From IMG/VR virus record IMGVR_UViG_3300049811_000165, positions 1 through 63,478 of that record: a stretch of DNA of 63,478 nt. The stretch is one strand, 5' to 3'. This DNA comes from a virus. The position numbers and the translations under genes were made by a program. The notes under the pieces were generated by a model. The model was not told where the DNA came from and made no database searches. It worked only from the letters and a program-made list of their open reading frames with translations. Below, in pieces: positions 18,257 through 60,825 of the stretch (within the stretch, counting starts at the first letter, position 1; every line of letters starts with the position of its first letter).

Positions 18257-18696
18257 CAATTTAGCTCTCCATGCGGGACGAAGTACGCAGCCTCTCGGCC
18301 GCCGTGGGCGCGGCGCCACTCGGCGCGCTTGGCGTCAGCCCCACGAATGGAGCCGACCACCCTGTACTCCGGGGCAGTCCCGACCACCAGCACGAACAGG
18401 TCGTCGTCCGAGTCGTCGTCGCGGACGATCAGCTCGTACTCCGGCTTGGAGCGAGTCCTGATCTGGACGCCGCCGGCAGAGTCCTCGCCCTTGAAGGAGT
18501 TGACCGACCCCGGCCAGAAGACGCCGACAGCCTTCGAGTACGCCAGCTCGCCCAGCGCGCCCTCGATATGCAGTTGCCAGCCGCCAGCCGCAGCGCCGTG
18601 TCGGTCGGACCGGCCAGCCTTGAGCGACGAGACGTGCCGCAGCACGCCGACGTTGGCCGCCATCACCATCTCGGCGGGCGTGAGGGTCACCTTCAT
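18256..18696 (-). CDS. Conserved phage protein, possible PD-(D/E)xK-type nuclease fold
   Basis: 146 aa. Its ATG overlaps the TerL-N stop (ggaATGAag), and a strong AAGAAGGAG SD sits inside the TerL-N 3' end. Pattern: GW.LHIEGALGELAYSK...D..GGVQIRTR...LIVRDDDSDDDLFVLV. Confidence 0.5.
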   Translation of the reverse strand: MKVTLTPAEMVMAANVGVLRHVSSLKAGRSDRHGAAAGGWQLHIEGALGELAYSKAVGVFWPGSVNSFKGEDSAGGVQIRTRSKPEYELIVRDDDSDDDLFVLVVGTAPEYRVVGSIRGADAKRAEWRRAHGGREAAYFVPHGELN

Positions 18697-40560: not shown

Positions 40561-40790
40561 TGTCCTGGCGGGAGCTGAGCCCCTACGCCTTCACCGACGG
40601 CAAGGTGAACATCGTGAAGTCGCTGGAGGCTGGGGTGCCTCGCTACATGATCGCGGTGCTCCCGGAGTTCCCGAAGCAGCCAACCCGCTCGTGGCACGGG
40701 CCGTTCGACTCCCCCAAGGAAGCGACGGCCTTCTACCGCGCCAACACCAAGGCCATCCTGGCGGCCGACAAGAACCTGAAGGCAACCTGA
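40560..40790 (+). CDS. Hypothetical protein (76 aa)
   Basis: Track ORF with a TGATG overlap. Confidence 0.6.
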   Translation: MSWRELSPYAFTDGKVNIVKSLEAGVPRYMIAVLPEFPKQPTRSWHGPFDSPKEATAFYRANTKAILAADKNLKAT

Positions 40791-41038
40791 TGGAAGACCC
40801 GCTCACCCCGTCGCTGCTGCGCCTTGCGATCGACACCGCGATCAGGGGCGACACCATGACCTTCTACGCCGAGCGCGACTGGGAGCCCGGGGCGGGCTTC
40901 CCGGGCTACAGCGTGCGGTCGACGGGCGGGCTGCTGCCCGACTACAAGATCATCGAGTGCGACCCGTTCGACCTCGTGGCCTACCTTGTCGACGCCGGGG
41001 TGGGCAAGAGCATGCCCATCCCCGTTCGTCGCCTATAG
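40790..41038 (+). CDS. Hypothetical protein (82 aa)
   Basis: Start moved to the ATG at 40790 (TGATG overlap). Its stop overlaps the stop of the convergent giant gene within CTATAG (41033-41038). Confidence 0.55.
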   Translation: MEDPLTPSLLRLAIDTAIRGDTMTFYAERDWEPGAGFPGYSVRSTGGLLPDYKIIECDPFDLVAYLVDAGVGKSMPIPVRRL

Positions 41039-44000
41039 CTTCTTCCTCAAGGTCTCGCTGGCCTTCTCCAGCTTCTGCTTCTCGCGCTCGACGCGGCGGT
41101 CGAACTCCTGCTGGGTGATCCCGTTGCGCGACAGCTCTCGGGCGAGGCCCTTGATGTTGTTCTGGATCTCGCGCTGGGCCTGCTGGAAGTCCTGCACCGC
41201 GCGCAGCCGCAGCGCATCCTCGGGGTAGGCCCGAGCCTTCACGCCGACTGACGACAGCGCCGCCGTGGCGAGCGATTGGTCGCGCCCGAAGGCGTCGGTG
41301 CGGCCGGTGCCGGCGTCAAGCAGGCCGGTCCAGGCGTAGGTCTGGAGCTGGCCACGGTCCGTGCCAGGGATGATCGTGCCCGGCCCAGGCAGCGGCAGGT
41401 TCGGGGCGAACGCCTTGAACAGGTGGTCTACCACCTTCGCCATCGCCTCGGCCTTCGTGTCGGTGTCCTTCACGATCTCGCGCCCGGTGAAGCTGGACTT
41501 GTTCGAGAAGAACTCCATCATGATCGAGAGCGGGCCGGAGACAGACAGCCAGCTCGGCACAGGGAGGGCCGCCTGCGACTGGTTCAGGTCGACCATGTCC
41601 CCGCCCGGCACCCAGCGGCGAGCGTCCAGGAACACGGGCGAGCCGTGCGCGTCGTTCCACGGCATGCGGATCAGGCGCGGGAACACGCCAAGCAGGCGCC
41701 CATCCAGCTCGTCGGGCAGTAGCTTGCGCTCGCGGTCCTCGTCGTCCCCACCCAGGCCGAGCATGGCGTAGGCCGCCGCGTTGAGGGCGTAGCCCACGGC
41801 GAGGTACTTGGCGAACTTCCACGGCTTGTGGGCCGCCGCGTTGAGCATCATCGGGATCGCCCGGTACGAGAAGGCGATGAACGGGAGCACCGAGCGCCGC
41901 GCGGCCTGGATCCAGGGGGCGTTGATGTTGTAGTCGAGGAAACTGTCGCGCGCCGCCTTGCCGGCCTCGCGGTCAGGCTTGCCCGCCTCGGTCTCGCGCA
42001 TGAACTTCGCGAGACGGAAGACGGAGTCCTCGCTCTGGTACGCGCGCATCATCAGCTCGAACGGCTTCTTCACCCAGGCCGCCTTCTCCATCGCGGCCTT
42101 GCCAGCGGTGAGCACATGGCCCTGCATGGCGAGGTTGACGATCTGGCTCGCCTTGAGCAGGCCCAGCTCGTTGTTCTCGACCTTCTCCAGCTCGGCAAGC
42201 AGGGGCTCGATGTAGAGCTGGCTCAGCTCGATGTTGGCGAAGGAGCCGTAGTCCGCGCCGCTGTCCTCGAAGCGATCGATCAGGGTCTTGGCCGCTGCGT
42301 CGCCGCGCTTGGCCGCCACGATCACGCGCATCGCCTTGACGATGTCGCGCGCCCGCACCTCGGCGAGGTCGGCCAGCACGAAGTTGGACATCACGTTGTT
42401 GGTGTGGACCGCAGGCGAGAGCGCCGTCTTCGACAGCTTCCAGTTGCGCACGAGCGCATCCCACGCCGCGCTCGTGGCGTCCGCCGGCCGCGCGAGCTGG
42501 TTGCGGATGTCGTTCCACACCGGGGCCGGGATGATCTTGCCCGCCAGCGCGCCGTACTTCTTCAGCTTGGTGCCGGCGATCTCGGTGTCCGGCACACGCA
42601 CGAACTCGTCGGGCTTGAACGCCTGGGTCGCCCAGTACCCGGTCGACGGGTCACCGATGATCTTGTCGGCCGGCGCATCCTCGGTGGCGTACTTCTCGGC
42701 CACCCACTTCAGGAACTTGGCGTTCTCGATGTCGCGGATCCCGTTGATAACGGTCTTGGCGAAGGCGAAGCGCACCTCCTCGATCTCGCCCAGCTTGTGC
42801 CGCTCCTCGGCGGTCATGTCGCGCCAGAGCCCGACCTTGTTGCCCGGGCGGTCCAGCCAGCGCGCCTCCCAGGTGTCGGCCTTGGTGTAGCCCTTCGGGC
42901 CGGCGGCGCCGTGCTTGACGTAGCGCACCGCCGTGACCTTGCCGCTGGGGCTGCGCGCCTCCCATCGGTCGAGCAGGTCGCCTTCCTTGATCTCGTCGAT
43001 CGCCTGCACGAGGGCGTCCGCCTTCACGTCGTGGCGGATGCCGCGCCCCTTGAAGTTCTCGGCCCGGATGGCTGCCGCGCGCTTGGCTGCTGCGCCGGCC
43101 GCGCCGGGCTTCATGTGCGCCTCGTAGATCCGGTGCAGGTAGGCCATCTTGTTGCGCTCGTAGCTGTCGGGCGTGAGCAGCCCGACAGACACCGCCTCGC
43201 GGCCGAGCGTGTCGATCAGCGACTTCATGTTGCGCAGCGTGGCGCGGTCGTCGGCCGGGATCTGGGCCAGGAGTTGCTGCTCCAGCTCGGTGTCCGGCTT
43301 CTCGGCCATCCACAAGTAGGCCACCCGGGACTGCTCGCGGGTGAGCCCAGCCAGCGAGTCCAGCAGGTTCTTGGTCTCGCGCAGCACCTTGTTGACCGCC
43401 GCCGTTCGGTCGATCTTGGCGTCCAGGTACATGCCCTCCAGGCCGAAGTCGGACACGAGCCCGTGCTTGACCCGGTCCGGGACGATCCTGGCGCCCTGCC
43501 GGATGAGGTAGTCGTAGGCTGGGCCGGAAAGCAGCCGCCCTACCCAACCCATGCCGAGCTTGAATGCGCCGTCCAGAAGGCCCGTCCTGGCCGCCGGAGA
43601 GGCATTCGCTGGGGTCTGGGTAGCCCGGGATTGCAGGCCGGCGGCGCGGACAAACTGGACGGGCACGTCCGAGTTGAGGACCACGGCCACGCCGGACAGG
43701 CCGTCGACGTAGCCGTCGTAGCCCGCCTTCAGCAGGGCCATCTCCCAGGCGTTGCGGGTGCCCGCCTCGTCGCGGATGAAGATCCCGGACTGGGTCCAGC
43801 CCACCGGCTCGACCTTGATCGAGGGCGAGATCCCGGATTTCCAGAGGTTCGCCAGCCGCACCTCGTGCCGGTTCGGGCCGAGCCCGCCCTCGCGCAGGGG
43901 GATGGTGCCGTTGTCGCGCTGGGTGTAGAAGTAGACCCGGCGGCGGATCTCCTCCGGCGCGCCGCTCAGGCGCTCAGCCTCGGCGCCACGGATGCCCTGG

Positions 44001-47000
44001 CCGTACATGAAGCCCGACAGCTCGGAGAGCTGCCCGTGACTCCAGTGCCACGCATCGACCGACACCGAGCCCGGCGCCGGCTTGCGGCGGCTGAACTCTA
44101 CGACGCCGGATCCTCCGCCAGTTGCTGCAACGGAGTGGAGCCCGAGTCGTCGACGAGGCCCTTGGGCAACGGGCTCTCCGCTCCCTGCTCCACCGTCCCG
44201 GCCAGCGCCTGATAGACCGAGGTCTTCATGGGCGCCTTGTTCGTCTTCATCCAGTTGATGATGTGCTGCTGTCCAACTTGGAGCATTGATTCCGTCGGCA
44301 TCTGCCACCTCCTTCAGCTCTTCGCGAACCCGGTCCAGGGTCATGCGGCCCCGCTTGTACTGATTCCACAGCGCCTCCACCGGGGCCGAGGTGGTGCGCT
44401 TGTCTGCCGCCCGGAACATGCCACGGACGGCTTCCCACGTGATCGACTGCATCTCGCGCGGGAGGATACCACGTTCCGCCGCCGCGCGCCGGTACGCCTC
44501 GGCGAAGATCCCGTAGGTGCCGTTCGACCCGATGATGGTCGAGGTGACCGGCCCGCGCTCGCCCTTCGTGTTGCCGCCGAAGGCGTTCTTGACCTCCTCG
44601 GAGTCGGACGACATCGGACGCAGCGTGGCCACGCCGACCGCGTGAGTGTCGACGGTGATCGCGTGCGGGTCGCTCGGATCGATCAGGTTGGTGTAGAAGT
44701 TGCGCACCTTGTGGCCGCTGCCGAGCTGGGTCGAGATGTTCTCCATCGAGCCATCGCGCAGGACGGACACCGCAGCGGCGATCGTGCCGTTGCTGCCCCA
44801 CTGCACAGAGGCCGGGGTCTCGCCGTCGTCATTCATCGCGAGGCCAAGGGTCTCGCCCTCGGGCGAGATCGCGCGGTAGGTGCGCGCGTTGTACGTCTCG
44901 TCGAAGGAGCGGATCCAGACCGCAGCTTCCAAGGGGTTGCTCAGCTCGGAGAGCTTCTTCCCCGCGATCTTGTTGGCCAGCTTGATCTGCGTCGCGCGCG
45001 CATCCGCCGACTGACCGGTGCGATCGGCCACCGCCGCCATGAACATCTCGTGCGTGGCGGTGAAGTCCTGGCGATGCTTCCAGATGTCGAGCACGCGCCG
45101 GGCGAGCGACACGTTCACGAACCAGTCGCGCTGCGGGCTGAGCACCGCGATGAGCGCGGCGCCCTGCTCGTGCGAGATGCCATAGAACTTGCTCATCTGG
45201 CGGGCGATCTTGTTGCCGCCGACGTACCAGAGCTTCGCGCGCTCTCGCACGGCCGGCAGGGTCTGGTCGTAGAGCCAGAGGATGTTCGACTTGAAGTGCT
45301 CGACCGCCGCCTCGATGGTCTCGGCCGGCGTGCGGCCCGGCTTCGGGCGGATGTTCGCCATCTTCGCCATCAGCTCTGCGTGGATCTGCACGCCCTTCGG
45401 GCCGAGCCCGAGGATGTGGTCGATCCCCACCGTGATGCGCTGCTTCATCGGGTCGAGCCACGTGCGCTCGGCGGTGGCCGTCACGGGCGCGGTGCTGATC
45501 TGCGTGCCGGTGCGCTCGGGCGAAAGCGAGATCCGCATCAGCGCGCGCGCTTGATCGCGCAGCCCGTCGAGCGCATCCTGGTCCGCTTCGGGCAGCGAGT
45601 CGCGCGCAGCCTTGTAGTCCTTCTTGTCGAGGAAGGAGAAGCCGCGCTGCGCCACCGACACCTTGGCCGGACCGAAGTGCGCTTGCAGCTTGGGCAGGGA
45701 CTTCGCCGCGTCGTCGACCAGGAACTCCATCATGCCGTCGCCGGAGCTGGTGAACCCGATGAACTCCTTCTTGTTGCCCGGCAGGGACTTGTACAGCGCC
45801 TCGCCGTCCTGGCCGTCAGCCAGCTCGACCACGATCGCGTCCTGCGTGCCCTTGGCGGACACGTGCAGGCCGGCGTCCTGATCGAACACGTAGGCCACCG
45901 CCGCCGCGATGCGCTGAGCCTCGACCGTGGATGCGCTTGGCAGCTTCAGTGCGACCGAGGGATTCACGTCGCCCATCCAACCGCCGACCGTGGACTGCAC
46001 GGTGGCCTTGGCGCTGGTGAACAGCTCGGCCACCGCCGGCACGATCGCCTTGGACAGTGCGAGCGTGATCTCCGCGCGGCGCGCGAGCGGCAGCTTGTCC
46101 CACTCGCCCTTGATCGCAGCGTTGCCGCCCGGAGCCACCTCGAAGGCGGCGTTCTCGGCCGACCACCGCTTCTTCGAGAAGAGGATGTTCTTTGACTGAG
46201 CGTCGAAGCCGCCGCCGTTCCCTATAGCAGACTTGATCTGCTCGGGGCGGAAGGCGACATATAGCGTCTCGCTGGTCGAGTCGCTGTCGACGATCACCCC
46301 GTCATGCCCGTCATTGATCGCACCCTCGATGATCTCCTGCTTGCGGATTCCGTACCCGTACTTCCAGTCCTCCAGGTATGCGATCGGTCCCATCCCCTTG
46401 TCGTCCGTCAGGCGGAGGGGGTTGCGGATCGACAGGTAAACAGGAATCACGTTCGGGCTACCGCCATCCCTTCCGGCGCGCTTGGCGTAGGAGCTTGCTC
46501 CGCCGTACTCTCCCGGGCTGCTGGTGAAGAAGAAGCCGCTCTTGTCGTCCCCAAACGTGGCCCCAATGCGATCGGGGTCGAACTCAGAAAAGTCTGACGC
46601 AGTGCCGTGATACACCACCTTAGGATTGCCATCGGCGCCCACAACCTTGCTGTCACCGAACCACGCCTTGAAGGCGGGGGTGGTCGCCTTCTCTGCGCGA
46701 CTCATCAGCATGTCGGCCGCCTCATCGCTCATCGACATCAGCTTCGCGTGCCATGCCTTCGTCTCGGCGTTCGAGATGTTCTCGCCGCGCGCCACGGCGC
46801 CACGAGCGCGCGTGACCAGCTCGATCAGGTCCGAGTCGGACATGCGCAGGTTGATGCCCAGCTTGCGCAGAACGTCGCGGATCAGCGAGACAGCCTTCGT
46901 GAGGAGGCTGTGCTTCTCGCCGGTCTCTGCCATGCGGGCGAGGACTTCCATCGCGCCGATGAGCTGGTTGTCGCCGTACTCCTGGCGCACGTTCTCCATC

Positions 47001-50000
47001 GAGGCGTAGCCGCCCTTGGCGCGCACACGGGCCACGTCCTTCAGGATCTCGATCCAGCGCCGCTCGAAGCCGGGGCCGGCGGCGGCGATGATTGACTCGA
47101 CGCCGTGGTGCCCAACGATCTCGTGAGCGATCACCTCGGCAGCGCGCTTCGGGTTGAGCGAGTCAGCGACCAGGATGACCGATCCGTCCTCGCCAACGTA
47201 CACGCCCTCGACGCCGGAGGGCAGGCCCTCGACTTCCTCGGCCGACTGCACCACGTAGATGTTGAGCTTGTTCGCTCCCTTGTTCACGGCGGAGAAGTCG
47301 TCGACGATCTTCGTGACCTCGGCGACATCCATGCCACGGCCGGTCTCGGACGAGACGGACTTGGTCGCTGGGGTCGCCTTGACCTGCTCGCCACCCTGCG
47401 GCGCGCCGTCGTGCATCACCCAGGCCGGCAGCAGCCCGGTCTTCTGGTCGGCGTACACCGTCTCCGACCCGCTCGCGCTGCGGTTCGTCTCGCCGTGCGG
47501 CCCGAAGTTGACCCACGAGTTCTGGCCACGGGTCTCGGTCGTCATGGCGCGGCGCGCCTGGGGCGAGTACATCTGCGAGTGCGCGCGCCAAGCGTTCTCC
47601 TCGCCATCGGCGCGGAAGCCGGCGCCATACATGGCGTGCCCGAAGTAGTCGTGGACCACGCGGAAGATGTCGTTCGCCAGGGCCTTCTCGCCGCTGATCT
47701 CGAACTTGGTCTCGGCCAGGAGCGGGTTGTCCTTCGGGTCGAAGGTCGCGTTCGAGCCGAAGCCGTCGCGCGTCGAGAAGACCCACAGGTGGTTGTTCTC
47801 GATCATGTCGAGCACGGCGAGGCGCGGGCTGGCCGCGTAGGGGTCCGCGCCACGGATGAACTCGACCTTGAGGCCGGACTTCAGGATCTCCTCGTACTGC
47901 GCGGAGGTCTCCTTGATCATCGCGGCGTAGGCGGCGGCCACCTGCGGGTCGCCCGGCGCGTGCGCCATCGCGGCGTACTCGGCGGCGACACGCGCGGCGC
48001 GCTCCTTGTCGACCTTCTTCCAGTCGGTGAGCGGCTTGAACTGGATTCCGGCGCGCTTGGCGTAGGACTTGGCCACGTCGAGCGCCTTGTCCCACAGGCC
48101 GAAGGTTACTCGGCCACGTCCCGGGATGTCGATGGCGCCCGGCGCTCCTTCGAGGACTCGGACATCGCCTTGATCCGGCCGACTGTCGCCAGCCACCTGT
48201 TCTTGGCCTCCTCGTACTGCTCGCGCGTCATCTCCCCGCGCTCCGGTGGGTTCGGCAGCATTGGTCTTCTCCTTGGTCTTGCGAGAGGCGACGATGTTGT
48301 CGCCCTCGCCGAACTTGATGTTCCCGACCGCGCTCTTGATCTGGTTCGGGTTGTAGACGGCGAGGTTCTTCTGGCCGCCCTCGGTCACGTAGAAGCTGTC
48401 GTGGCCCAGCGCCTTGATCGCCGCCTGCACCTCGGGCGATTCGAGCACGGTCCAGTCGCCACGGTCGAGCGATTCGATCAGATCGTCTTCGGTCCACTGG
48501 TTGCTCTGCAACGTGAAGACACCTTTCCCTGCGGAAAGATGACTTGCCACTCGCGCAGCGTGCTCGGGGTTCGAGCCGTCGAACGGGCGCTCGGCGCGCA
48601 CGAACACGGGCAGGATGTTGGGGCCGCTGTCGAGAGCGTCCATCGAGGCGTACAGCCACTCGTCGGTCATGCGGACGTTGTCGAGGTAGTAGTTCAGCGT
48701 CTCATCGTCGACATCCTGGGCCTCGTAGTTCTGGCGCACCATCTCCCGCGCGCGCTCGTCGACCTTGGCCATCACCTCTGGCTTGAGGTTCGGCAGGTGC
48801 TTCTTCAGCCATTCGAGCGAGGCGTGAGCGAAGCTCTCGGCGAACTGCGGATCAGGCGACAGGAAGATCGCGCCGGCCTGCTTGGGCTGGAACGACTCGA
48901 TGTCGGCGGCCGTGCCGTGGAAGTAGACCTGGGGCGCCGCGCCCTGCTTGGTCTTGCTGGCACCGAACCACCGCTTGAAGTTGGGGTCGGTGCTCTGCTC
49001 GGGCGCCACGTAGGTGCCGCCCTTGGTCTTGGTGATGCCGCGCTTGGAGAACAGGCCGAACAGCTTCTTGCGCTGGGGCGTGGGCTTGGGCTCCTCCTTG
49101 GGGCGGGGCCGCGCGCGCAGCACCTCCTCGATGGTCTTGCCGGTCGGGCTCTTCCAGCCCGGCGCGGCGCGGTCGGAGAGCGCCTGATTGGCGCTATATT
49201 CGCTGCGCAGTGACTTGGTCTTCGAGCGCGCCTTCTTGGGGATCGCCGGCTTGGACGGCACGCTGACCGGGGAGATGCCCAGGTCTTCGCGGCGCAGCCG
49301 CTCCTGCTCAGCTTCCATCGCCTGCGGGCCGGTCTCCATCGAGACGTTGCCCGCGCTGTCGACGCGCATCCCGCCGGTCAGGCCGGGCTCGTTGCCGATC
49401 TGGCGCACGGTGCGGTCGACCTGGACCTTCGTTGCGTTGCCGGCGCCGTCGACGCGAATCTCGCTCTGGGTCGGCGTGCCGCCGGTCCCGCCTGGGGGTG
49501 GCAGCGCGGGGCGGTTGCCCTGGCCGGCGTCGCCCTTGTCGAGCACCATGTCGGGGGTGACGTTGACCTTCTCGCGCACCTCGCGCGTCACGATGCCCGT
49601 GTCGTCAGGGATCGGCGCGCCAGCCACGCCGCGCGGGGCCAGGGCGGGAACCTGGGCGCCCTCGGTCGGATTGTCGACCACGGCACCAGCGTCCACGGGC
49701 TCGCCGCGCAGGCGTTTGGCGAGGTTGCGCAGGCCAGCGCTCTTCGAGCCGGGCTCCTTCGAGGAGATCGAGTCCTTTGCCAGGACAGCCACGTCCGCCG
49801 GGGCGGTGGCAAGCTCGCCGACGGCCTCGGCAAGCACCTGCCCGGGGGCGTCGATCTCGCCCTTGGTCGCGAGCTGAGCGCCAGCCTCGCCCGCCGCGCC
49901 GCCGCCCGCCTGAACGGCCATCTGGGTCGGGACGTTGACGAACTGCTTTGCGACCGCGCTCTTGAGCGCCTTGGGGGCGATGGTCTTCGATGCGATGCCG

Positions 50001-51349
50001 CCCGTGGCGGCGTCGGCCATCCCGATGATTGTGGCGCGCGTGCCGGCGTAGGACAGGCCAGCCCGCAGGTTTTCCGGGTCCGAGTAGAACTTGACCAGCG
50101 CGCCCTCGCTCTTGGCGTCGACGCCGTTCTCGGCAGCGAAGTCCAGCAGTGAGGATCCGTTCTCCATCATCGCGGAGTTGGCGCCCATCATCACGGCGCC
50201 CGGAATGCCGCCTCCGGCCAGCGCCGCAAACACGAGGCCCGGCGCCATCGCGGCGGCGCTCTGGGCGGTAATGCCGGCGATCACGTTGAGGGGGTCGGAC
50301 TTGAATGCGCCCCACGCATCCTCGGCCGTCTTGGCTTCCAGCATCCTCTGGACAGACGAGCGCGCCACGAAGGTCGACGACTTGTTGCTGGCCGCGATCT
50401 CCTTGTCGGCCACCTTCGCCTCACTCAGCGCGGCGGCGGCGGCGGCATCGTACTGCTCGGCCGTGGTCTCGTCGCCAGCAGCTCGCGCGGCAGCGGCGGC
50501 GGCCTTGTGTTCCTCGACCCGCTTCATGTCCTGGGCGAGCGAGCGGCCACGGAGTCCCTGGGTGGCGCTGCGCCCGCCCTCGGCGATCTCGGATCCGGTC
50601 TGCTTGAGGGTCAGCCGGGCGTGGTCGAAGAACGAGAGCTGAGTGCTCTCGTCGAACGCGGCCTGAAGCTCGGCGAGCTGATCAGGTCCAACCGCCTTGG
50701 GAAGCGCCTCGTTGCGGTACTCGGCGCGGAGTTGTTCGCGCTCCTCCGCGTTGAGGGCGGCGAACTGCGGAGACTGGACGATGTCGCTCCACTTCGGGAT
50801 CTTGGTCGCTCCGGCCTGGGCGGAGGTCTTCTCCGCGCGCGGCGCGCCGCCCTTCATGCGGGAGTGGGTCTTGTCGATGTACTCGCGCACGGTCGTCTTG
50901 CCGTCGCTGCGGTCCATCTCGATCGTGCCGTCTTTGCGCACCGCGTCGGGGCCGCCGAAGTAGAAGGCCGCCGCCTTGCGCGTGTCGCCGTTGTACGTCT
51001 TGATGCCATGCTTGAGGTAGGCGACGCCGGCCTCGGCCGAGTGCTCGGGGTTGTCCCAGCGGTAGTCCTTGGGGATGTAGCCGCGCTGCTGCATGTCGCG
51101 GAACGCGATCTCCCTGACCTGCATCGGGCCGCGCGCGCCCTTGTCGTTGGGCTTCGAGGTGTCGGCCTTGCCGGAGCTGGACTCCTGGGCGAAGACGGAG
51201 CGGACGAAGTCGCGGTGCTCGCCGAGCCCCTGCCGATCGATCGCGTCATCCAGCCAGTCGCGCCCCTCCGTCTTCGGCTTGGGCACACCGGGGGCGGCCT
51301 CCGCTTCGGTCTTGGCGTTGGGGTTCGCGAGCTTGTCCCAGAAGTCCAT
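41033..51349 (-). CDS. Giant virion-associated polyvalent protein (3,438 aa): SLT lytic transglycosylase, two ART-PolyVal-like domains, an HE..GH metallopeptidase-like motif and C-terminal membrane-active segments
   Basis: Start moved to the ATG at 51349, 4 nt after GGAGGTGG. The first 63 aa of the track ORF are Arg/Pro-rich and overlap the upstream gene. SLT: VFAQESSSGK...GARGPMQV...AEAGVAYLK (about 50939-51247). Two modules run YFHGTAADIESF...GHDSFYV..NPNQIKSAVGN (about 48290-48935) and VVYHGTASDFSEFD...GHDGVIV..RPEQIKSAIGN (about 46170-46625). VIAHEIVGHHG lies at about 47105-47131. Hydrophobic helices lie at about 41750-41890. Confidence 0.8.
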   Translation of the reverse strand: MDFWDKLANPNAKTEAEAAPGVPKPKTEGRDWLDDAIDRQGLGEHRDFVRSVFAQESSSGKADTSKPNDKGARGPMQVREIAFRDMQQRGYIPKDYRWDNPEHSAEAGVAYLKHGIKTYNGDTRKAAAFYFGGPDAVRKDGTIEMDRSDGKTTVREYIDKTHSRMKGGAPRAEKTSAQAGATKIPKWSDIVQSPQFAALNAEEREQLRAEYRNEALPKAVGPDQLAELQAAFDESTQLSFFDHARLTLKQTGSEIAEGGRSATQGLRGRSLAQDMKRVEEHKAAAAAARAAGDETTAEQYDAAAAAALSEAKVADKEIAASNKSSTFVARSSVQRMLEAKTAEDAWGAFKSDPLNVIAGITAQSAAAMAPGLVFAALAGGGIPGAVMMGANSAMMENGSSLLDFAAENGVDAKSEGALVKFYSDPENLRAGLSYAGTRATIIGMADAATGGIASKTIAPKALKSAVAKQFVNVPTQMAVQAGGGAAGEAGAQLATKGEIDAPGQVLAEAVGELATAPADVAVLAKDSISSKEPGSKSAGLRNLAKRLRGEPVDAGAVVDNPTEGAQVPALAPRGVAGAPIPDDTGIVTREVREKVNVTPDMVLDKGDAGQGNRPALPPPGGTGGTPTQSEIRVDGAGNATKVQVDRTVRQIGNEPGLTGGMRVDSAGNVSMETGPQAMEAEQERLRREDLGISPVSVPSKPAIPKKARSKTKSLRSEYSANQALSDRAAPGWKSPTGKTIEEVLRARPRPKEEPKPTPQRKKLFGLFSKRGITKTKGGTYVAPEQSTDPNFKRWFGASKTKQGAAPQVYFHGTAADIESFQPKQAGAIFLSPDPQFAESFAHASLEWLKKHLPNLKPEVMAKVDERAREMVRQNYEAQDVDDETLNYYLDNVRMTDEWLYASMDALDSGPNILPVFVRAERPFDGSNPEHAARVASHLSAGKGVFTLQSNQWTEDDLIESLDRGDWTVLESPEVQAAIKALGHDSFYVTEGGQKNLAVYNPNQIKSAVGNIKFGEGDNIVASRKTKEKTNAAEPTGARGDDARAVRGGQEQVAGDSRPDQGDVRVLEGAPGAIDIPGRGRVTFGLWDKALDVAKSYAKRAGIQFKPLTDWKKVDKERAARVAAEYAAMAHAPGDPQVAAAYAAMIKETSAQYEEILKSGLKVEFIRGADPYAASPRLAVLDMIENNHLWVFSTRDGFGSNATFDPKDNPLLAETKFEISGEKALANDIFRVVHDYFGHAMYGAGFRADGEENAWRAHSQMYSPQARRAMTTETRGQNSWVNFGPHGETNRSASGSETVYADQKTGLLPAWVMHDGAPQGGEQVKATPATKSVSSETGRGMDVAEVTKIVDDFSAVNKGANKLNIYVVQSAEEVEGLPSGVEGVYVGEDGSVILVADSLNPKRAAEVIAHEIVGHHGVESIIAAAGPGFERRWIEILKDVARVRAKGGYASMENVRQEYGDNQLIGAMEVLARMAETGEKHSLLTKAVSLIRDVLRKLGINLRMSDSDLIELVTRARGAVARGENISNAETKAWHAKLMSMSDEAADMLMSRAEKATTPAFKAWFGDSKVVGADGNPKVVYHGTASDFSEFDPDRIGATFGDDKSGFFFTSSPGEYGGASSYAKRAGRDGGSPNVIPVYLSIRNPLRLTDDKGMGPIAYLEDWKYGYGIRKQEIIEGAINDGHDGVIVDSDSTSETLYVAFRPEQIKSAIGNGGGFDAQSKNILFSKKRWSAENAAFEVAPGGNAAIKGEWDKLPLARRAEITLALSKAIVPAVAELFTSAKATVQSTVGGWMGDVNPSVALKLPSASTVEAQRIAAAVAYVFDQDAGLHVSAKGTQDAIVVELADGQDGEALYKSLPGNKKEFIGFTSSGDGMMEFLVDDAAKSLPKLQAHFGPAKVSVAQRGFSFLDKKDYKAARDSLPEADQDALDGLRDQARALMRISLSPERTGTQISTAPVTATAERTWLDPMKQRITVGIDHILGLGPKGVQIHAELMAKMANIRPKPGRTPAETIEAAVEHFKSNILWLYDQTLPAVRERAKLWYVGGNKIARQMSKFYGISHEQGAALIAVLSPQRDWFVNVSLARRVLDIWKHRQDFTATHEMFMAAVADRTGQSADARATQIKLANKIAGKKLSELSNPLEAAVWIRSFDETYNARTYRAISPEGETLGLAMNDDGETPASVQWGSNGTIAAAVSVLRDGSMENISTQLGSGHKVRNFYTNLIDPSDPHAITVDTHAVGVATLRPMSSDSEEVKNAFGGNTKGERGPVTSTIIGSNGTYGIFAEAYRRAAAERGILPREMQSITWEAVRGMFRAADKRTTSAPVEALWNQYKRGRMTLDRVREELKEVADADGINAPSWTAAHHQLDEDEQGAHEDLGLSGAGRDGGAGSGEPVAQGPRRRLGLHSVAATGGGSGVVEFSRRKPAPGSVSVDAWHWSHGQLSELSGFMYGQGIRGAEAERLSGAPEEIRRRVYFYTQRDNGTIPLREGGLGPNRHEVRLANLWKSGISPSIKVEPVGWTQSGIFIRDEAGTRNAWEMALLKAGYDGYVDGLSGVAVVLNSDVPVQFVRAAGLQSRATQTPANASPAARTGLLDGAFKLGMGWVGRLLSGPAYDYLIRQGARIVPDRVKHGLVSDFGLEGMYLDAKIDRTAAVNKVLRETKNLLDSLAGLTREQSRVAYLWMAEKPDTELEQQLLAQIPADDRATLRNMKSLIDTLGREAVSVGLLTPDSYERNKMAYLHRIYEAHMKPGAAGAAAKRAAAIRAENFKGRGIRHDVKADALVQAIDEIKEGDLLDRWEARSPSGKVTAVRYVKHGAAGPKGYTKADTWEARWLDRPGNKVGLWRDMTAEERHKLGEIEEVRFAFAKTVINGIRDIENAKFLKWVAEKYATEDAPADKIIGDPSTGYWATQAFKPDEFVRVPDTEIAGTKLKKYGALAGKIIPAPVWNDIRNQLARPADATSAAWDALVRNWKLSKTALSPAVHTNNVMSNFVLADLAEVRARDIVKAMRVIVAAKRGDAAAKTLIDRFEDSGADYGSFANIELSQLYIEPLLAELEKVENNELGLLKASQIVNLAMQGHVLTAGKAAMEKAAWVKKPFELMMRAYQSEDSVFRLAKFMRETEAGKPDREAGKAARDSFLDYNINAPWIQAARRSVLPFIAFSYRAIPMMLNAAAHKPWKFAKYLAVGYALNAAAYAMLGLGGDDEDRERKLLPDELDGRLLGVFPRLIRMPWNDAHGSPVFLDARRWVPGGDMVDLNQSQAALPVPSWLSVSGPLSIMMEFFSNKSSFTGREIVKDTDTKAEAMAKVVDHLFKAFAPNLPLPGPGTIIPGTDRGQLQTYAWTGLLDAGTGRTDAFGRDQSLATAALSSVGVKARAYPEDALRLRAVQDFQQAQREIQNNIKGLARELSRNGITQQEFDRRVEREKQKLEKASETLRKKL

Positions 51350-51407
51350 CAGGCCACCTCCAATGAGAGCGACCCATACTACTGCCAGGACTACTGGTTG
51401 GAGGAGC

Positions 51408-52685
51408 CTAGAAGCCCAGCTTCTTTCGGGCGTCGGCAACGGCGGGGGCCGGCGCGGCGCCAGCAGCAGGGGCCGGCTTCCCGCCGCCGGCCTTGGCCTT
51501 GTACTCGGACTTCGCCTTCTCCAGGGCCGCGACCGCATCCATCCCGTCGCGAACGTACTGGTGGGCCGCCGAGCGGATGGACTCGTACTCCGATCGCTTC
51601 TCCGGGGAGATCATGAGGCGACCCATCGGGTCCGTGGTGCCGTAGTCGGCCCCGAGGTTGCGGTCGAGTTGGTTCTGGCGCTGAAGGGTCTGATCCGGGG
51701 TCGGGCGCGCGTCCTTCCGGTTCTCCGCCACGAGCTTGCCGTCGGGGGTCCGCATCTCGGCGCCCTCGGCCAGGATCACGTTCTGGGACTTGGGCGTCGA
51801 GATCCCGGACTGCGCGCGCACGGTGCGGGCCTGCTCCGGCGTGAAGGTCATGGCGACCTTGCCGTCGGCGCCAACCACCTCGATCACGCCATCCTTCCCG
51901 GGGCGGAACTCCTTCAACTCCCAGCCCTCGCCGCCGATGCCGGCGTGGCGACTCGCCGCGATCGCCTTGTCGGTGAAGCCGTTCTCGTAGAGCCACAGGA
52001 CCGTGCCCATCGCGGTGATCTGGTTGCGCTGGGCGTCCATCGCGAGCTGCTTGACCTCGGCCTGCGTCTTGCCCGTGCGCAGCGCCTCGTCGGCCGCGCG
52101 GGTGCGCTCCTTGTACTCGGTGTCGAGCACCTGGGACTGCTTCACGAGGTGGTTCGCGTAGTCCTCGGTGGCGCGCTTGATGAGGCGGTGGTCGCCCTTC
52201 TCCATCGCCACGTCCACGCGGGCCTTGAAGAAGTCCGAGGTGCGCTTGGCCGGGTCCGGCTTGGGGCGCACCACCATCTCGGGCAGCTTGGCGGTCAGGC
52301 CGCCGGCCGCCTGCTCGGCGCCGGGCTGCTGGGTGGCGCCGCCCGCCTCCATCGCGGACGGGCGCATCGCCCCCTGGCCGGGGACTCCAGCCGGGAGCCC
52401 GACGGCCGGCTGGACGCCAGCAGAGGCCGCAGGAGCCTCCGTCGCCTGCACGGTGACGCTACCATCAGGGGCCATGCCCGGGATCGCGTCCTGGGGCGCG
52501 CCAGAGGCCCCCAGGCGCTTTGCCGCCTCGGCGTTCAGGCCGGACTCGTCCTCGGTCAGCTTGGCTTCGTCCTGGAGCTGCTTGAGCTTGATCGCCTCGA
52601 TCTCGCGCCGCTGCTTCTGGTCCTGAAGGTTCTGCCCGACCTGATAGCCCTGGGTCAGTCCGCCGATGAATGCTCCGAAGCTCAT
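51408..52685 (-). CDS. Internal virion / ejection protein (putative)
   Basis: 425 aa with a Gly-rich N-terminus, coiled-coil Gln/Glu/Lys segments and Ala/Pro-rich linkers. It lies immediately upstream of the giant protein, analogous to podovirus internal core proteins. Confidence 0.45.
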   Translation of the reverse strand: MSFGAFIGGLTQGYQVGQNLQDQKQRREIEAIKLKQLQDEAKLTEDESGLNAEAAKRLGASGAPQDAIPGMAPDGSVTVQATEAPAASAGVQPAVGLPAGVPGQGAMRPSAMEAGGATQQPGAEQAAGGLTAKLPEMVVRPKPDPAKRTSDFFKARVDVAMEKGDHRLIKRATEDYANHLVKQSQVLDTEYKERTRAADEALRTGKTQAEVKQLAMDAQRNQITAMGTVLWLYENGFTDKAIAASRHAGIGGEGWELKEFRPGKDGVIEVVGADGKVAMTFTPEQARTVRAQSGISTPKSQNVILAEGAEMRTPDGKLVAENRKDARPTPDQTLQRQNQLDRNLGADYGTTDPMGRLMISPEKRSEYESIRSAAHQYVRDGMDAVAALEKAKSEYKAKAGGGKPAPAAGAAPAPAVADARKKLGF

Positions 52686-53773
52686 TACGCCACCATCGAG
52701 TAGTCGACCTTCTTGAACCCGAACGCGCCGGCCACGGCAGCCTCGGGCACCTCATCTGCCATCACGCCACGGCCGGGCTCGCCCCACACGTACTCGTAGG
52801 AGTAGACGAACTTCCCGCCCGGGGTCATGCCGACCACCTTGATGTTGCGCTTCAGGCGGCGGTCGGACGAGAACAGCTTGGCCCCGAGCTTGGTGCCGAA
52901 GCCGCCGCCCAGCGCCATGCCGGCCGCGCCGCCGAGCGCACCCATGAGCTGATTCTTGCCCTGCTGGTTGGCCTGCCACGTCGCCATGTTCGCGCCGTTG
53001 ACGTTCAGGAACGTGCTGGCCGACTGGCCGAGCTGGTTCGACGCCTGACCGTAGCCGGACATCAGGGCGCCGCCGGCCCGCTCGTTCATGTTGAAGTTGG
53101 TCTGGCCGATGTTGGCCGCCGCGCCTGCGGTCGAGGTGCCGACCCCGGTGGCGGCGAGCGAGTGCCCGGCGATGCCACGGCCGATCGACACGGCGTTCTG
53201 GCGCATCTGGTCGCCCCGAGCGCGCTCGATCGCGGCGGCGCCGGTCTGGGCGCCCACCTTCGCGGCGGCGGCGCGGATGCTTGACGCGCGGTCCATGCCG
53301 GCGCCGGAGTCCGGGCGCACGCCCATCGAGGCCATCTCTCGTCCGCGCGCGGCGAACTGGTTGTCGATCTCGCGCTGGACATCGACCCCGGCGCGCGCGG
53401 CGGCGGCGTCCTGCTCGGACTGGTTGCCGGCGACGGCCGCGTCCGCAGCGAAGCGAGTCTCTAGCGGCTTGAAGGTGGTGTCGTAGTGCTGCTCGGCCTC
53501 GGTCGCCTGCTTGATGGCGAGGTCGTTCAGGTCGATCTGGCCCTGGGTCAGGCGCTCGATCATCGGGCGCATGCTCTCGGCCTCGGCCTTCTGATCGGCG
53601 TACTGCTGCTGGGCGAAGCGCAGCGACTCCTGGCCGATCTCGGCCTGCTTGTGCGCAGCCCAGGTGGCCATCGGATCGACAGCGGGCGCCTTCGAGGACT
53701 TGGCCGCGCGCGTGCGCTTGGCGCCGACGAGGTCGAGCCAGAAGGTGTAGATCAGTAGCGGCCAGTCTCGCAT
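52685..53773 (-). CDS. Gly/Ala/Gln-rich virion protein with a C-terminal peptidase S74 (intramolecular chaperone) domain
   Basis: 362 aa. C-terminus LFSSDRRLKRNIKVVGMTPGGKFVYSYEYVWGEPGRGVMADEV matches the S74 autoproteolysis signature SD.RLK.NI...Y.Y......G..A.EV. Confidence 0.6.
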   Translation of the reverse strand: MRDWPLLIYTFWLDLVGAKRTRAAKSSKAPAVDPMATWAAHKQAEIGQESLRFAQQQYADQKAEAESMRPMIERLTQGQIDLNDLAIKQATEAEQHYDTTFKPLETRFAADAAVAGNQSEQDAAAARAGVDVQREIDNQFAARGREMASMGVRPDSGAGMDRASSIRAAAAKVGAQTGAAAIERARGDQMRQNAVSIGRGIAGHSLAATGVGTSTAGAAANIGQTNFNMNERAGGALMSGYGQASNQLGQSASTFLNVNGANMATWQANQQGKNQLMGALGGAAGMALGGGFGTKLGAKLFSSDRRLKRNIKVVGMTPGGKFVYSYEYVWGEPGRGVMADEVPEAAVAGAFGFKKVDYSMVA

Positions 53774-54171
53774 ATTCGGGTCCAGAACTTGTTCGTGCGC
53801 CAGAGGACAAACAGCTCAACGTCCCCGCCCTTCCTTGCTCGCTCCAGGGTGGCCTCGTGCTCCGCCCCGAGCGACCGAACGAAGCGCAGGCACGCCTCGT
53901 TGTCGTCGTCCACCATGAGCGTCACCCGGTCCAGCTTGAGCTGGTCGTAGGCGTAGCCCATCGCGGCGGCCAGGAGCTGCCACGGCATCAGACCCTCGGA
54001 CGCGATGTGCGCGAACACGTTGTTCGAGCCCATCGTGTCGAAGTAGATGCCCGCAGTCAGCCGGCCATCGCGCTCCCACCCTATCGTGGCGACCGTCGGC
54101 GGCGCGGTTGTCCCGCTCCGCTCGGCCACCCATGCACTTACTCGCGCGTCCTGTCCAAGGACAAGACTCAC
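53752..54171 (-). CDS. GNAT-family N-acetyltransferase (putative)
   Basis: 139 aa. LDRVTLMVDDDNEACLRFVRSLGAEHEATLERARKGGDVELFVLWR resembles the GNAT beta4-alpha3 (R..R.LG) and C-terminal strand pattern. Its size is typical. Confidence 0.45.
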   Translation of the reverse strand: MSLVLGQDARVSAWVAERSGTTAPPTVATIGWERDGRLTAGIYFDTMGSNNVFAHIASEGLMPWQLLAAAMGYAYDQLKLDRVTLMVDDDNEACLRFVRSLGAEHEATLERARKGGDVELFVLWRTNKFWTRICETGRY

Positions 54172-58536: not shown

Positions 58537-60825
58537 CTAGACTCCTCGCGCCATCCAGCTCAGGTCCACGTTCGATCCCGGCTCGCCGCCGGAATCGGTG
58601 AAGAGCTTGACCTTGAACCGCATGGGGTTCGCCGCATCGACGAAGTCGACCACCGGGATGATAGGCGTGGTCGCCTTGGGTTGGACGATCGGAGGGCCAA
58701 GCAGGTCGACGAAGAAGGTCTCGCCGAACTTGTAGGTCGCGCCCGAGCCGCCCGCCGTGGTTACACGCGACAGCGTCACGCCGCCGGACGGGGTGTTGAC
58801 GGCGGTCACCACCGTGCCGGCCGGGATCCCCGTGCCCTCGACGGTCTGCCCGACCACGATCCCCGCCAGCGAGCTGAGCGAGGTGATGGTGTTCTGCCCC
58901 AGGGTGTTGTCCCCGGTGGCCGTCACCTGCGCATTGTCGACGGTCAGCAGGAACTCGGTGCCACCCGAGGCGTTGGACCCAGTGGTCCAGGTGCCCTGGC
59001 GGCCGAGCATCTTCTGCTTGACGTTGAGCTTGACGTTGAGCGCGGAGACCCGGTAGATGCCCTTCTGGTCGCCGCCGTTGGTGGCCGTGAGGCGCACCTT
59101 GACGTAGCGGAAGGAGGCCGCGATGAAGCCGCTGGGGCCGAGCGGCAGGTCGGTCCACGAGTCGCCGGCCAGCAGCTTGTAGCTCACCTGCACCGTGTAG
59201 GCCGGGGAGCCCGCAGCGACCAGGATGGTCGGATTGACGATCACCCCGGTGGCCGGGATGGTCGCGTTGTAGTCGATCTGCACCTCCAGGTAGCCACTGG
59301 CCGGGGTCGGCTGGGCGTAGACCGGGAAGCCCGCCGCGATCGCGTCGTCGTCGTTGGTCCAGCTCCGCGAGGTGTAGTGCGAGTCCCACGACTCGGCCGT
59401 GTTGAAGGGCAGGTCGATGCCCGTGCCATCGAACACCGCGCTCGACAGCGTCGCGGACGAGAGGTCGACGTTCAGGTCGGAGTAGAGGATGTAGTCGGGC
59501 GGCTGCGAGACCTTCGTGGTGATCGGGGTCTCGACCCCGAAGTTGCTCGCCGTGTCCTTGGCGCGCACCCAGTACGTGTAGGTGCCGCTGATCTGCTCGA
59601 AGAACGAGGTGAACAGGCCCGCCTTCTCGCCGACCTTGGTGGCCGTGCCGAAGTCGGCGCCGCGCCAGATTTCGTAGGTGATCACCGGCAGCGTGCCGGC
59701 GGTGGGCTCGTCCCAGTAGAGCAGCACGTTGTTGTCGACCACCTCGGCGCGCAATCCCTGCACGACGCCGGGCTCGACCACCACCACGTCGGTCGAGATC
59801 GGGTCGGCGGTGTTGCCCGCCACGTCGACGGCCGCCACCCAGTACCGCTGCGTGCCTTCCCAGTCGACCTTCTTGAAGAAGGTGGTGGTGAAGGCGCGAT
59901 CGATCACCGTGGCCGTGTCCCAGGCGGAGCCCAGGCGCAGCTCGAAGTAGTCGATCGAGAAGGTGCCCGGCGTGGTGCTCCACGACAGGTTGAACGAGTC
60001 GCCCAGGATCGAGGCGCTGAGCGCGGTCTGCGCGGGGCGCGCCACGACGATGTCGACCGACGTGGCCGAGCCCGAGTAGAACCCGCTGATGTCCTTGCCG
60101 CGCAGCCACAGGCGATAGGTGCCGGCGGTCTGGACCTTCCACAGGTACGACAGGCCCTTGGTCTCCTCGATGCGAACGCCCCCGTCCCAGGTCGCGCCAA
60201 GGCGGATCTCGTAGACCGACAGGTCGGAGTCGAGCACCGGATTCCAGCGCAGGCGCACGCCGAAACCCTCGAACTCGTAGGTCAGGCCGCCCACGTCACC
60301 CGGCTGGGAGTTGTCGCCCGTGCCCGAGATCGCATTGAAGCCGCCCGGGATCCCGGCCAGGGACACGTGGCGGATCCAGTAGAACCAGCTCGCGCCGTCC
60401 TGGAACACGTCCTCGTAGATGTTGACCGGCCACTCGGCGATCTTGGTTGCGGTCGAGAGGTTGTTGGTGTTCGAGCGCCACACCTCGGTGTGCTTGTGGT
60501 AGCCGTAGCCCGGCTCGGGCCAGCCGAGCAGCATCTTGTAGGGCTGGCGCGTCACCACGAGCGTGCCCGGCGCGGGCGGCGCGGCGTTGATGGCCGCTCC
60601 CGGATTGTCGCCCGCCACGTAGCGCGAGCCGTCCGGCGCCTTGGTGATCACGCCGGCATCGACCAGATCGCGGAACGTCACCGCCACGTCGAGCGCGGAC
60701 TCGGCGGTGGTTGGCGTGTCGTTGGCCAGGACGCCGAGCGCGAGCTTGACCTGCTTGGCCCAGTTGCGGACGCCGGCCGGGCTCGTGTCGACGAGGTCCG
60801 GGAGGTTGGGCTGGCGCGTGGTCAT
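58537..60825 (-). CDS. Tail protein with tandem fibronectin-III-like repeats (gpJ-like central region)
   Basis: 762 aa. It has at least four repeats of the type L.W..P......Y.EIR.G..W..A......T....W......Y.YWV.A.D..GN. Confidence 0.6.
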   Translation of the reverse strand: MTTRQPNLPDLVDTSPAGVRNWAKQVKLALGVLANDTPTTAESALDVAVTFRDLVDAGVITKAPDGSRYVAGDNPGAAINAAPPAPGTLVVTRQPYKMLLGWPEPGYGYHKHTEVWRSNTNNLSTATKIAEWPVNIYEDVFQDGASWFYWIRHVSLAGIPGGFNAISGTGDNSQPGDVGGLTYEFEGFGVRLRWNPVLDSDLSVYEIRLGATWDGGVRIEETKGLSYLWKVQTAGTYRLWLRGKDISGFYSGSATSVDIVVARPAQTALSASILGDSFNLSWSTTPGTFSIDYFELRLGSAWDTATVIDRAFTTTFFKKVDWEGTQRYWVAAVDVAGNTADPISTDVVVVEPGVVQGLRAEVVDNNVLLYWDEPTAGTLPVITYEIWRGADFGTATKVGEKAGLFTSFFEQISGTYTYWVRAKDTASNFGVETPITTKVSQPPDYILYSDLNVDLSSATLSSAVFDGTGIDLPFNTAESWDSHYTSRSWTNDDDAIAAGFPVYAQPTPASGYLEVQIDYNATIPATGVIVNPTILVAAGSPAYTVQVSYKLLAGDSWTDLPLGPSGFIAASFRYVKVRLTATNGGDQKGIYRVSALNVKLNVKQKMLGRQGTWTTGSNASGGTEFLLTVDNAQVTATGDNTLGQNTITSLSSLAGIVVGQTVEGTGIPAGTVVTAVNTPSGGVTLSRVTTAGGSGATYKFGETFFVDLLGPPIVQPKATTPIIPVVDFVDAANPMRFKVKLFTDSGGEPGSNVDLSWMARGV

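Follow-up and report, generated by a model that had tools for sequence, protein, structure and literature searches.

The viral record IMGVR_UViG_3300049811_000165 of IMG/VR (63,478 nucleotides; hereinafter the window, that is, the whole stretch of DNA that was analyzed) contains a giant gene (41033-51349, minus strand, stop codon included) for a protein of 3,438 amino acids (aa), and we consider it likely that this product is the large ejection protein of a short-tailed phage of the Bcep22 type, with the makeup of a phage-type polyvalent protein. The first part of the domain chain consists of an SLT lytic transglycosylase, a hydrophobic segment, a low-complexity linker, the first of two ART-PolyVal domains, a domain denoted HDYFGH after its motif and a zincin-like domain with an HExxxH motif; these are followed by the second ART-PolyVal domain, a region denoted X, DUF7178, a region denoted Y and a conserved C-terminal module of 850 aa. 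The giant protein belongs to the already known class of phage-type polyvalent or Bcep22 gp75-type virion proteins. New here are the definition of the conserved C-terminal module, with its probable homology to the C2 portion of the C-terminal domain (CTD-C2) of the N4 virion RNA polymerase (vRNAP), the documented swap of cargo between near-identical phages, and the HDYFGH domain, a common enzyme-like phage domain without a solved structural relative.

An earlier note on this DNA, made from its letters alone, had placed the gene in the setting of an N4-like phage, at the position where such phages encode the vRNAP. The relationships of the late proteins do not agree with that setting: the phage is, by sequence similarity, a relative of Burkholderia phage Bcep22 and the Lessievirus group and not of N4. 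The portal, the major capsid protein and the counterpart of gp67 are, respectively, 42%, 49% and 34% identical to those of Bcep22, further matches were found for the gp69 acetyltransferase, gp70 and the N-terminus of gp74, and the gene order is similar, whereas a tblastn search with 22 late proteins against the N4 locus produced no match. No close relative at the DNA level was detected in the GenBank phage collection. Bcep22 has the order gp69, gp70, gp73, gp74, gp75, the last of these being a 4,602-aa protein annotated as 'DarB-like antirestriction', and therefore, given the Bcep22-matching structural genes and their order, the giant gene occupies the gp75 slot, so that the parallel with N4, as judged from these comparisons, is not one of phage relatedness. 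The counterpart of gp75 in phage JC1, gp69, has been detected in purified virions by mass spectrometry (PMC9144972). The placement of the gene as the last one of the late unit, after virion proteins, was borne out by PHROG and Pfam scans of the neighbors, together with the Bcep22 matches. These scans delineate a minus-strand late unit that wraps round the ends of the window, starting with the small terminase, a two-part large terminase with an HNH endonuclease open reading frame (ORF) in between, the portal and the major capsid protein, and continuing with an internal virion protein (phrog_511), tail fibers, an acetyltransferase, a virion structural protein, a 425-aa protein and the giant gene.

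Domain-by-domain comparison with profiles, which the earlier note had proposed, yielded matches to three Pfam families (SLT, ART-PolyVal and DUF7178), all over the curated cut-offs, and none to RNA polymerase (RNAP) profiles or to MPTase-PolyVal (Table 1). The SLT domain and the two ART-PolyVal-like domains that had been recognized from motifs are thus confirmed, and the domain previously described by the motifs AVLSPQRDW (residue 2068), DTHA (2234) and QSITWEAVR (2301) is DUF7178. The SLT domain contains a catalytic-type pair, Glu56-Ser57, within FAQESSSG, and additionally shows a PHROG match to lytic tail protein/endolysin and a BLASTP match to the N-terminus of Bcep22 gp75 (E 1e-4); residues 186-236 match the 'DNA ejection protein' of Xylella phage Xfas53. 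Residues 356-390 comprise the sole strongly hydrophobic stretch of the protein (maximum 1.71 for the Kyte-Doolittle 19-residue mean), a putative membrane-inserting segment, and the surrounding region has a tblastn match to the 'lysin' polyvalent protein of an Octadecabacter phage. By contrast, in the C-terminal part of about 1,100 aa, where membrane-spanning helices had been suggested, the maxima are 1.27-1.28 and fall within conserved motifs, so that the notion of a C-terminal membrane domain gives way to that of the conserved module.

The two ART-PolyVal domains scored 128 bits for the whole protein against a cut-off of 31, with 54 and 90 bits for the two copies. In the jackhmmer alignment, copy 1 is split by an insertion of approximately 120 aa into pieces at 800-835 and 959-1010. 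The signature motifs lie at 810 (FHGT), 982 (GHDS) and 1003 (QIKSA.GN) in copy 1 and at 1580 (YHGT), 1681 (GHDG) and 1704 (QIKSA.GN) in copy 2, so that the histidine and the aspartate that, along with a tyrosine, are catalytic in the H-Y-D clade of PF18760 (His in strand 1, Tyr in strand 2, Asp in strand 5) are kept in both copies. A recent duplication as the source of the two copies was rejected because the similarity between them is only at the level of motifs. Region Y (2400-2570) also was considered as a third, degenerate ART but BLAST gave no support.

The metallopeptidase-like reading of HEIVGHHG (residue 1409) holds in part. By sequence comparison, this region is homologous to the HExxH region of Bcep22 gp75: in addition to the BLASTP match (Table 1), it is recovered with the Bcep22-type profile (Prob 79, E 1.7e-5), gp75 has a canonical HEAFH at the site aligned with HEIVGH, and the downstream glutamate is conserved, in the context xEVLA. 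The weak best match of N4 gp50 to this domain falls exactly on the HELVH of its C1 domain (i-E 0.013). The motif itself is not of the canonical form, and the Pfam family MPTase-PolyVal gave no match.

The HDYFGH motif noticed earlier is present at residue 1233 and marks a domain with more than 720 homologs that share 50-65% identity, include 48 invariant columns and are very common in phage metagenomes. These homologs are either standalone proteins of about 270-300 aa or are fused, often, to DUF7178 and also to ART-PolyVal, Zeta toxin, inteins or prohead protease. The AlphaFold2 (AF2) model of the domain has a pLDDT of 88 and a pTM of 0.85, and yet the domain shows no match to any Pfam family, no fold match in the PDB at E<0.001 and no PDB sequence match, including with the alignment profile; in the BFVD, the fold recurs only in uncharacterized viral polyvalent or multidomain proteins. 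The best Foldseek hits of the model, not significant, are aromatic amino-acid hydroxylases (E 0.4, TM about 0.2); the H-x4-H iron motif of that family is suggestive, but we do not claim a relationship.

The C-terminal module can be aligned from end to end with the C-termini of other proteins and shares with them dozens of invariant residues. It matches no Pfam model, including those of the LPD models that could be tested, and a PDB profile search was likewise without a match. A word-index search that retrieved 10-24 proteins made the module look rare; this view was rejected after pattern scans located it in 46 bacterial genome loci, mostly in prophage-like regions of Beta- and Alphaproteobacteria (for example, Dechloromonas, Limnobacter, Hydrogenophaga, Fulvimarina and Aureimonas), and in at least 195 viral contigs of IMG/VR, of which 80 were kept, most of them 53-70 kb long. 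The cargo was surveyed in 126 fetched phage and prophage loci, in which many ORFs are cut by the 10-kb flank. In all but three of these (123/126), the module forms the end of a long ORF, usually of 2,000 to more than 4,200 aa. Other segments of the giant protein recur in only a few of these relatives (ART2 in 21, HExxGH in 16, HDYFGH in 4 and SLT in 3), and the cargo of the relatives is the usual one of polyvalent proteins: ddrB-ParB, LPD1, LPD37, MuF_C, InPase, Eco57I/N6 methylase with ResIII/Helicase_C, ART-PolyVal and SLT.

A clean case of exchange comes from a sister phage (IMGVR_UViG_3300049489_000398, locus L067), in which the giant protein is 98% identical to ours in the module, 95% identical over residues 1694-3438 and 77% identical over residues 1-1550, and in which residues 1551-1693 (the ART2 core; window 46271-46699) are replaced by an unrelated 519-aa segment (L067 residues 1589-2107) that has no match in Pfam. 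The constancy of the module combined with this swap of ART2 indicates, therefore, that cargo is exchanged module by module.

Several members of the module family show peculiar arrangements. Two candidates for standalone module genes were rejected: P0006 is cut off by a contig end, and P0142, an 894-aa module ORF, is in a different frame from the polyvalent ORF before it, which exceeds 4,113 aa (ddrB-ParB, Zeta toxin, methylase, helicase and ART-PolyVal; locus L019, 9850-10100) and ends 32 nucleotides past the start of P0142. This looks like a frameshift, due either to sequencing or to a programmed event that would link the cargo to the module. In P0003 (also locus L093), the module contains an insertion of about 350 aa (A1 columns ~1480-1830) directly before the TALSP.vH.NNVMSN motif, and the homing endonuclease family PF05204 is on record for this protein in Pfam; we read the insertion as an intein. 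Intein-type elements usually reside at functionally critical sites. A 65-kb environmental podovirus (MW202615.1; locus L005, 7012-13512) encodes, as the last gene of the structural block, a 2,166-aa Cys-free protein annotated as 'DNA repair protein' that contains a divergent copy of the module (about 20-24% identity).

The C-terminus of Bcep22 gp75 was too divergent from the module for detection by BLAST or by comparison of a hidden Markov model to sequences. Three alignments entered the hhalign comparisons: that of the module family (27 sequences at first, 114 in a richer version) and two that cover the C-terminal ~1,100 aa of, respectively, nine diverse Schitoviridae vRNAPs and five Bcep22-type proteins (from Bcep22, Ralstonia phage Eline, a Stx/933W-like coliphage, a Vibrio phage and a Bacteroides phage). 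With 27 sequences, the module matched the Bcep22-type profile with Prob 93.4-94.1 (P 1.3-2.6e-7, 357-377 columns) and the N4-type profile with Prob 71-80 (P 1.4-3.7e-5, 273-317 columns); with 114 sequences, the respective values were Prob 93.8 (P 1.8e-7, 138 columns) and Prob 92.3 (P 5.4e-7, 258 columns). Merging the module with the Bcep22-type alignment gave Prob 93-94 against the N4-type profile (P 1.3-3.8e-7, 199-273 columns), so the score of the module-N4 comparison goes up with richer or merged profiles. The direct comparison of the N4-type and Bcep22-type profiles scored only Prob 9 (P 0.004, 82-133 columns) but brings the same motifs into register, and the three pairwise alignments agree with one another. 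The controls, that is, reversed alignments and ten column shuffles per target, did not exceed Prob 0.6 (P 0.09-0.9). The shared motifs are WK.SKTALsP.vH.NNVMSN, ED.vFRLA.F...G.....A..A...F.DY and PF..F.YR, and the N4-type match of the module core corresponds to gp50 residues ~3072-3451, that is, to CTD-C2. Homology of the module to the Bcep22-type C-terminus is, at the profile level, well supported, and homology to N4 CTD-C2 is probable.

A recent structural study (PMC13434306, 2026) describes N4 gp50 as beads on a string passing through the tail, with an N-terminal domain that includes membrane-spanning helices, a ~100-aa low-complexity linker, the RNAP, a zincin-like C1 and a 110-kDa alpha-helical C2, for which 'no significant structural homology' to known structures was found. 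In DEV, an N4-like phage, the corresponding C-terminal domain of the vRNAP (gp71) is the best-conserved part of that protein and binds the periplasmic tunnel protein (PMC11445570). The balance of this evidence tips somewhat, by a modest measure, toward the module being a widespread delivery chassis, which would function in docking to the ejection apparatus and/or in encapsidation and would be homologous across the family described here, the Bcep22/933W-type giants and the N4-like CTD-C2.

Because of this link, the giant protein and N4 gp50 probably have more in common than their position. The match in position at the end of the late unit that the earlier note had pointed out stands and is extended by the probable CTD-C2 homology, whereas the expectation of an N4-like phage does not stand and no RNAP domain is found. 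The giant protein shares its overall plan with N4 gp50 and DEV gp71 (Schitoviridae): membrane-type helices in the N-terminal part, an extended low-complexity linker, a payload, a zincin-like domain and, at the C-terminus, a large alpha-helical domain; the hydrophobic region of the giant protein is analogous to the membrane-spanning helices of the gp50 N-terminal domain, and its linker (aa 590-800) to residues 907-1006 of gp50 (PMC13434306). In each case, the gene is the last of the late unit, after two smaller Cys-free proteins, which form a co-ejected operon in N4 and DEV and may do so here. The giant protein differs from gp50 in the lack of an RNAP domain, in the presence of an N-terminal SLT, in that the zincin-like domain lies apart from the C-terminal module, and in that the other genes of the two phages are unrelated. 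Another ejection protein with a comparable beginning is T7 gp16, the largest of three ejection proteins, about 1,300 aa long, with an N-terminal lytic transglycosylase and no effector cargo. On our interpretation, the giant protein would resemble T7 gp16 in that an N-terminal SLT is located on the largest internal or ejection protein of a podophage, the one encoded last; an analogy to T7 is also drawn in PMC11445570.

Given these parallels, one has to ask whether a highly divergent vRNAP, either of the T7/N4 type or of the crAss-like type with two DPBB domains, hides in the parts of the giant protein that have no assignment. The giant protein matches gp50 in size (3,438 versus 3,500 aa), its gene likewise closes the late unit, the module is remotely related to CTD-C2, and about 1,000 aa are without assignment. 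However, the N4 similarity maps to C2 and not to the polymerase domain, and all searches were negative: Pfam recognized no RNA_pol domain, phmmer against all PDB sequences gave nothing at E<=1 with the full-length N4 vRNAP (9PNR) included in the library, and BLASTP against gp50 gave a best E of 0.09. Neither motif B (Rx3Kx6-7YG) nor the metal-binding motif [ND]xDxD is present, and the sole HDS lies inside ART1. Moreover, outside the C-terminal module, and with the hydrophobic region and the linker set aside, the stretches without assignment are each shorter than 300 aa and therefore too short for an RNAP core of 800-1,100 aa. Hence no T7-like single-subunit RNAP domain was detectable in the sequence, which is in line with the failure of the earlier note to find the RNAP motifs, and the proposal of a hidden polymerase, already largely refuted, appears extremely improbable.

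The annotation of gp75 suggests another function, namely, that of a DarB-like antirestriction protein that is injected together with the DNA and shields it from restriction via methylation and helicase action. The giant gene occupies the same slot as gp75, and some of the relatives that share the module carry an Eco57I/N6 methylase with ResIII/Helicase_C (locus L042); in the giant protein itself, however, Pfam and PHROG detect no methyltransferase, helicase or ddrB-ParB domain, and the BLASTP overlap with gp75 is limited to the SLT and the zincin-like region. We accordingly regard this function as quite unlikely for the giant protein. The choice of gp75 as the comparator in the earlier note nevertheless proved apt: the giant protein and the gp75/JC1 gp69-type giants of Lessievirus, related Ralstonia phages and Stx/933W-like podophages are encoded in the same slot, by the last late gene, after the acetyltransferase and virion structural proteins, and have in common an N-terminal SLT, a zincin-like domain, zero cysteines and a C-terminal module that is homologous at the profile level (Prob 93-94). 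Compared with gp75, the giant protein is 1,164 aa shorter and contains two ARTs, HDYFGH and DUF7178 in place of the methylase and helicase cargo.

The features of the giant protein are those of the phage-type polyvalent proteins as characterized by Iyer, Burroughs, Anand, de Souza and Aravind (2017; PMC5512222): a large size, unrelated enzymatic domains, a location among late genes, a lysozyme or SLT, a zincin-like domain, and at least two ART-PolyVal domains of the H-Y-D clade. The relatives of the giant protein carry LPD1, LPD37, ddrB-ParB, InPase and MuF_C, which also belong to the set described there. The zincin-like MPTase with HExxH is present in about 36% of the phage-type polyvalent proteins and so is not obligatory. 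Via the MPTase domain, those authors already placed the N4 vRNAP among the polyvalent proteins, but they are not known to describe a shared C-terminal module. A difference from that set is that the 850-aa module and HDYFGH match no Pfam model.

The most substantial alternative to an ejected carrier of effectors is that the giant protein is mainly a structural component of the internal core or of the ejection channel, with the enzyme-like cargo being decayed passengers that are inactive in the host. The ~120-aa insertion in ART1, the non-canonical zincin motif and the non-evident tyrosine of ART strand 2 are compatible with decay, and the free swapping of cargo between close relatives suggests that it is dispensable. 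On the other hand, in HDYFGH 48 polar or aromatic columns are invariant among homologs from hundreds of phages, at 50-65% identity, the match of ART2 extends over the entire Pfam model and SLT retains the Glu-Ser pair; furthermore, the swap in the sister phage involves a whole module, flanked by regions of 77% and 95% identity, which we read as an exchange of working parts and not as decay. Decay of the entire cargo thus seems to us improbable, if less so than an antirestriction function.

The interpretation of the giant protein as an injected polyvalent protein has, for its part, several observations to contend with. We infer its presence in the virion and its injection into the host from indirect signs, namely the virion association of positional homologs (PMC9144972) and the lack of cysteine, and of the single injected multi-effector protein envisaged in the earlier note, it is the chain of modules that the Pfam matches bear out. 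The strand-2 position of the ARTs is occupied by Phe and not by Tyr in a small alignment, an uncertain assignment, and the catalytic competence of both ARTs is, judging from the sequences, uncertain. The zincin motif HEIVGH is of the HExxxH form as opposed to the canonical HExxH. About 1,000 aa, including the post-SLT region, regions X and Y, and the first 280 aa of the C-terminal module, are without assignment. The evidence for the link to N4 is that of profile-profile alignments, which span 260-320 columns at about 11% identity, with P about 1e-5 to 1e-7; the structural comparison was uninformative, as the AF2 model of the module, built from 7 sequences, is poor (pLDDT 53) and Foldseek against the PDB gave noise only. 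Finally, the 425-aa and 362-aa proteins encoded upstream show no detectable similarity to N4 gp51/gp52, so that a tunnel-protein role for them is a guess.

Table 1. Segments of the giant protein and the two genes upstream of it (nt, nucleotide positions in the window)
Feature	Residues (aa)	Window (nt)	Strand	Basis
SLT lytic transglycosylase	47-147	50909..51211	-	Pfam PF01464, E 3e-11, 43 bits vs cut-off 21
Gly/Ala-rich hydrophobic region	345-520	49790..50317	-	core aa 356-390
Low-complexity G/P/K/R/T-rich linker, ~200 aa	590-800	48950..49582	-	composition; no family match
ART-PolyVal copy 1	800-1010	48320..48952	-	Pfam PF18760, E 4e-14
HDYFGH domain	1091-1320	47390..48079	-	enzyme-like, strongly conserved
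Zincin-like 'HEIVGH' domain	1337-1560	46670..47341	-	BLASTP to Bcep22 gp75 3483-3563, E 5e-5
ART-PolyVal copy 2, complete	1565-1720	46190..46657	-	Pfam PF18760 at 1572-1715, E 3e-25
Region X	1720-2010	45320..46192	-	no family match; common only to phage zth2-2, loci L067 and L069
DUF7178	2014-2310	44420..45310	-	Pfam PF23802 at 2014-2300, E 3e-31
Region Y	2423-2565	43655..44083	-	tblastn to phage zth2-2 and Limnohabitans phage DC33, about 40% identity
Conserved C-terminal module, ~850 aa	2589-3438	41036..43585	-	alignment to C-termini of relatives
Upstream 425-aa protein		51408..52685	-	N-terminus matches Bcep22 gp74, virion structural protein; 0 Cys; no family match
Upstream 362-aa virion structural protein		52685..53773	-	phrog_8003, E 9e-50; matches Bcep22 gp70; 0 Cys

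The limits of the giant gene given in the earlier note are upheld by several features. The start codon ATG is at 51349-51347, with GGAGG at 51357-51361, 8 nucleotides before it, and the upstream gene stops at 51408; given this stop and the GGAGG, the mechanical ORF (41033-51538, minus strand, 3,501 aa) is not the gene. The codon-position GC content is 0.66/0.47/0.90 (0.90 in the third position), as in the other genes of the 67% GC window. The gene accounts for 16% of the phage genome, compared with 15-20% for giant polyvalent proteins in such phages, and closes the minus-strand late unit, converging on a plus-strand unit. Its stop (41033-41035) overlaps the stop of the convergent plus-strand ORF (~40787-41038) in the palindrome CTATAG, and a GC-rich hairpin without a T-run is located after it, at 41000-41026 on the minus strand; a terminator scan found no intergenic terminator.

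The giant protein contains no cysteine among its 3,438 residues, compared with 0.76% for the remaining proteins of the phage (P about 4e-12). Bcep22 gp75 and N4 gp50 likewise have none, cysteine is absent or nearly so in further members of the family such as the 2,166-aa MW202615 protein, and the two proteins encoded upstream (window 51408-53773) are free of it. In the N4-like phage DEV, cysteine suppression is a mark of all three ejection proteins (PMC11445570). Also free of cysteine in this phage, where the average is 0.76%, are the major capsid protein (window 1051-2190) and a 762-aa tail fiber (58537-60825).

The upstream 425-aa and 362-aa proteins are candidate co-ejected proteins; their homologs were not found beside other family members except in Bcep22. 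The gene next in the virion-protein block codes for an acyl-CoA N-acyltransferase (phrog_4470; 53752-54171, minus strand), with Bcep22 gp69 in the same place. The large terminase is divided into two minus-strand ORFs, one for the ATPase part (18693-19475; phrog_31467, phrog_2) and one for the nuclease part (16982-17689; phrog_5653), separated by an HNH/endonuclease VII ORF (17735-18319), which looks like an interruption of the homing-endonuclease or intron type.

Taken as an ejected polyvalent protein, the giant protein could function as follows. A few copies would be packed in the capsid and, partly unfolded like a string of beads, would exit via the tail either before the DNA or together with it. 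The peptidoglycan would be opened by the SLT domain, and the hydrophobic segment might anchor the protein in the inner membrane. The C-terminal module would dock to the smaller co-ejected proteins and/or direct encapsidation, a role proposed because of the remote homology to the C-terminal domains of the N4 and DEV vRNAPs. The central enzymes would act in the cytoplasm, where the two ARTs might ADP-ribosylate host targets, and the zincin-like domain, conceivably, could cut the chain into separate effectors. In short, the giant protein would be an N4-gp50-like delivery vehicle with effectors in place of the polymerase. The finding of one module with very different cargoes, along with the evidence that the same module ends the N4 vRNAP, points to a common delivery mechanism. 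If this is true, the N4 vRNAP and the polyvalent effector proteins would be cargo variants of one ancestral ejected protein, the cargo would be exchangeable module by module, and the vehicle would be a testable and engineerable device for protein injection.

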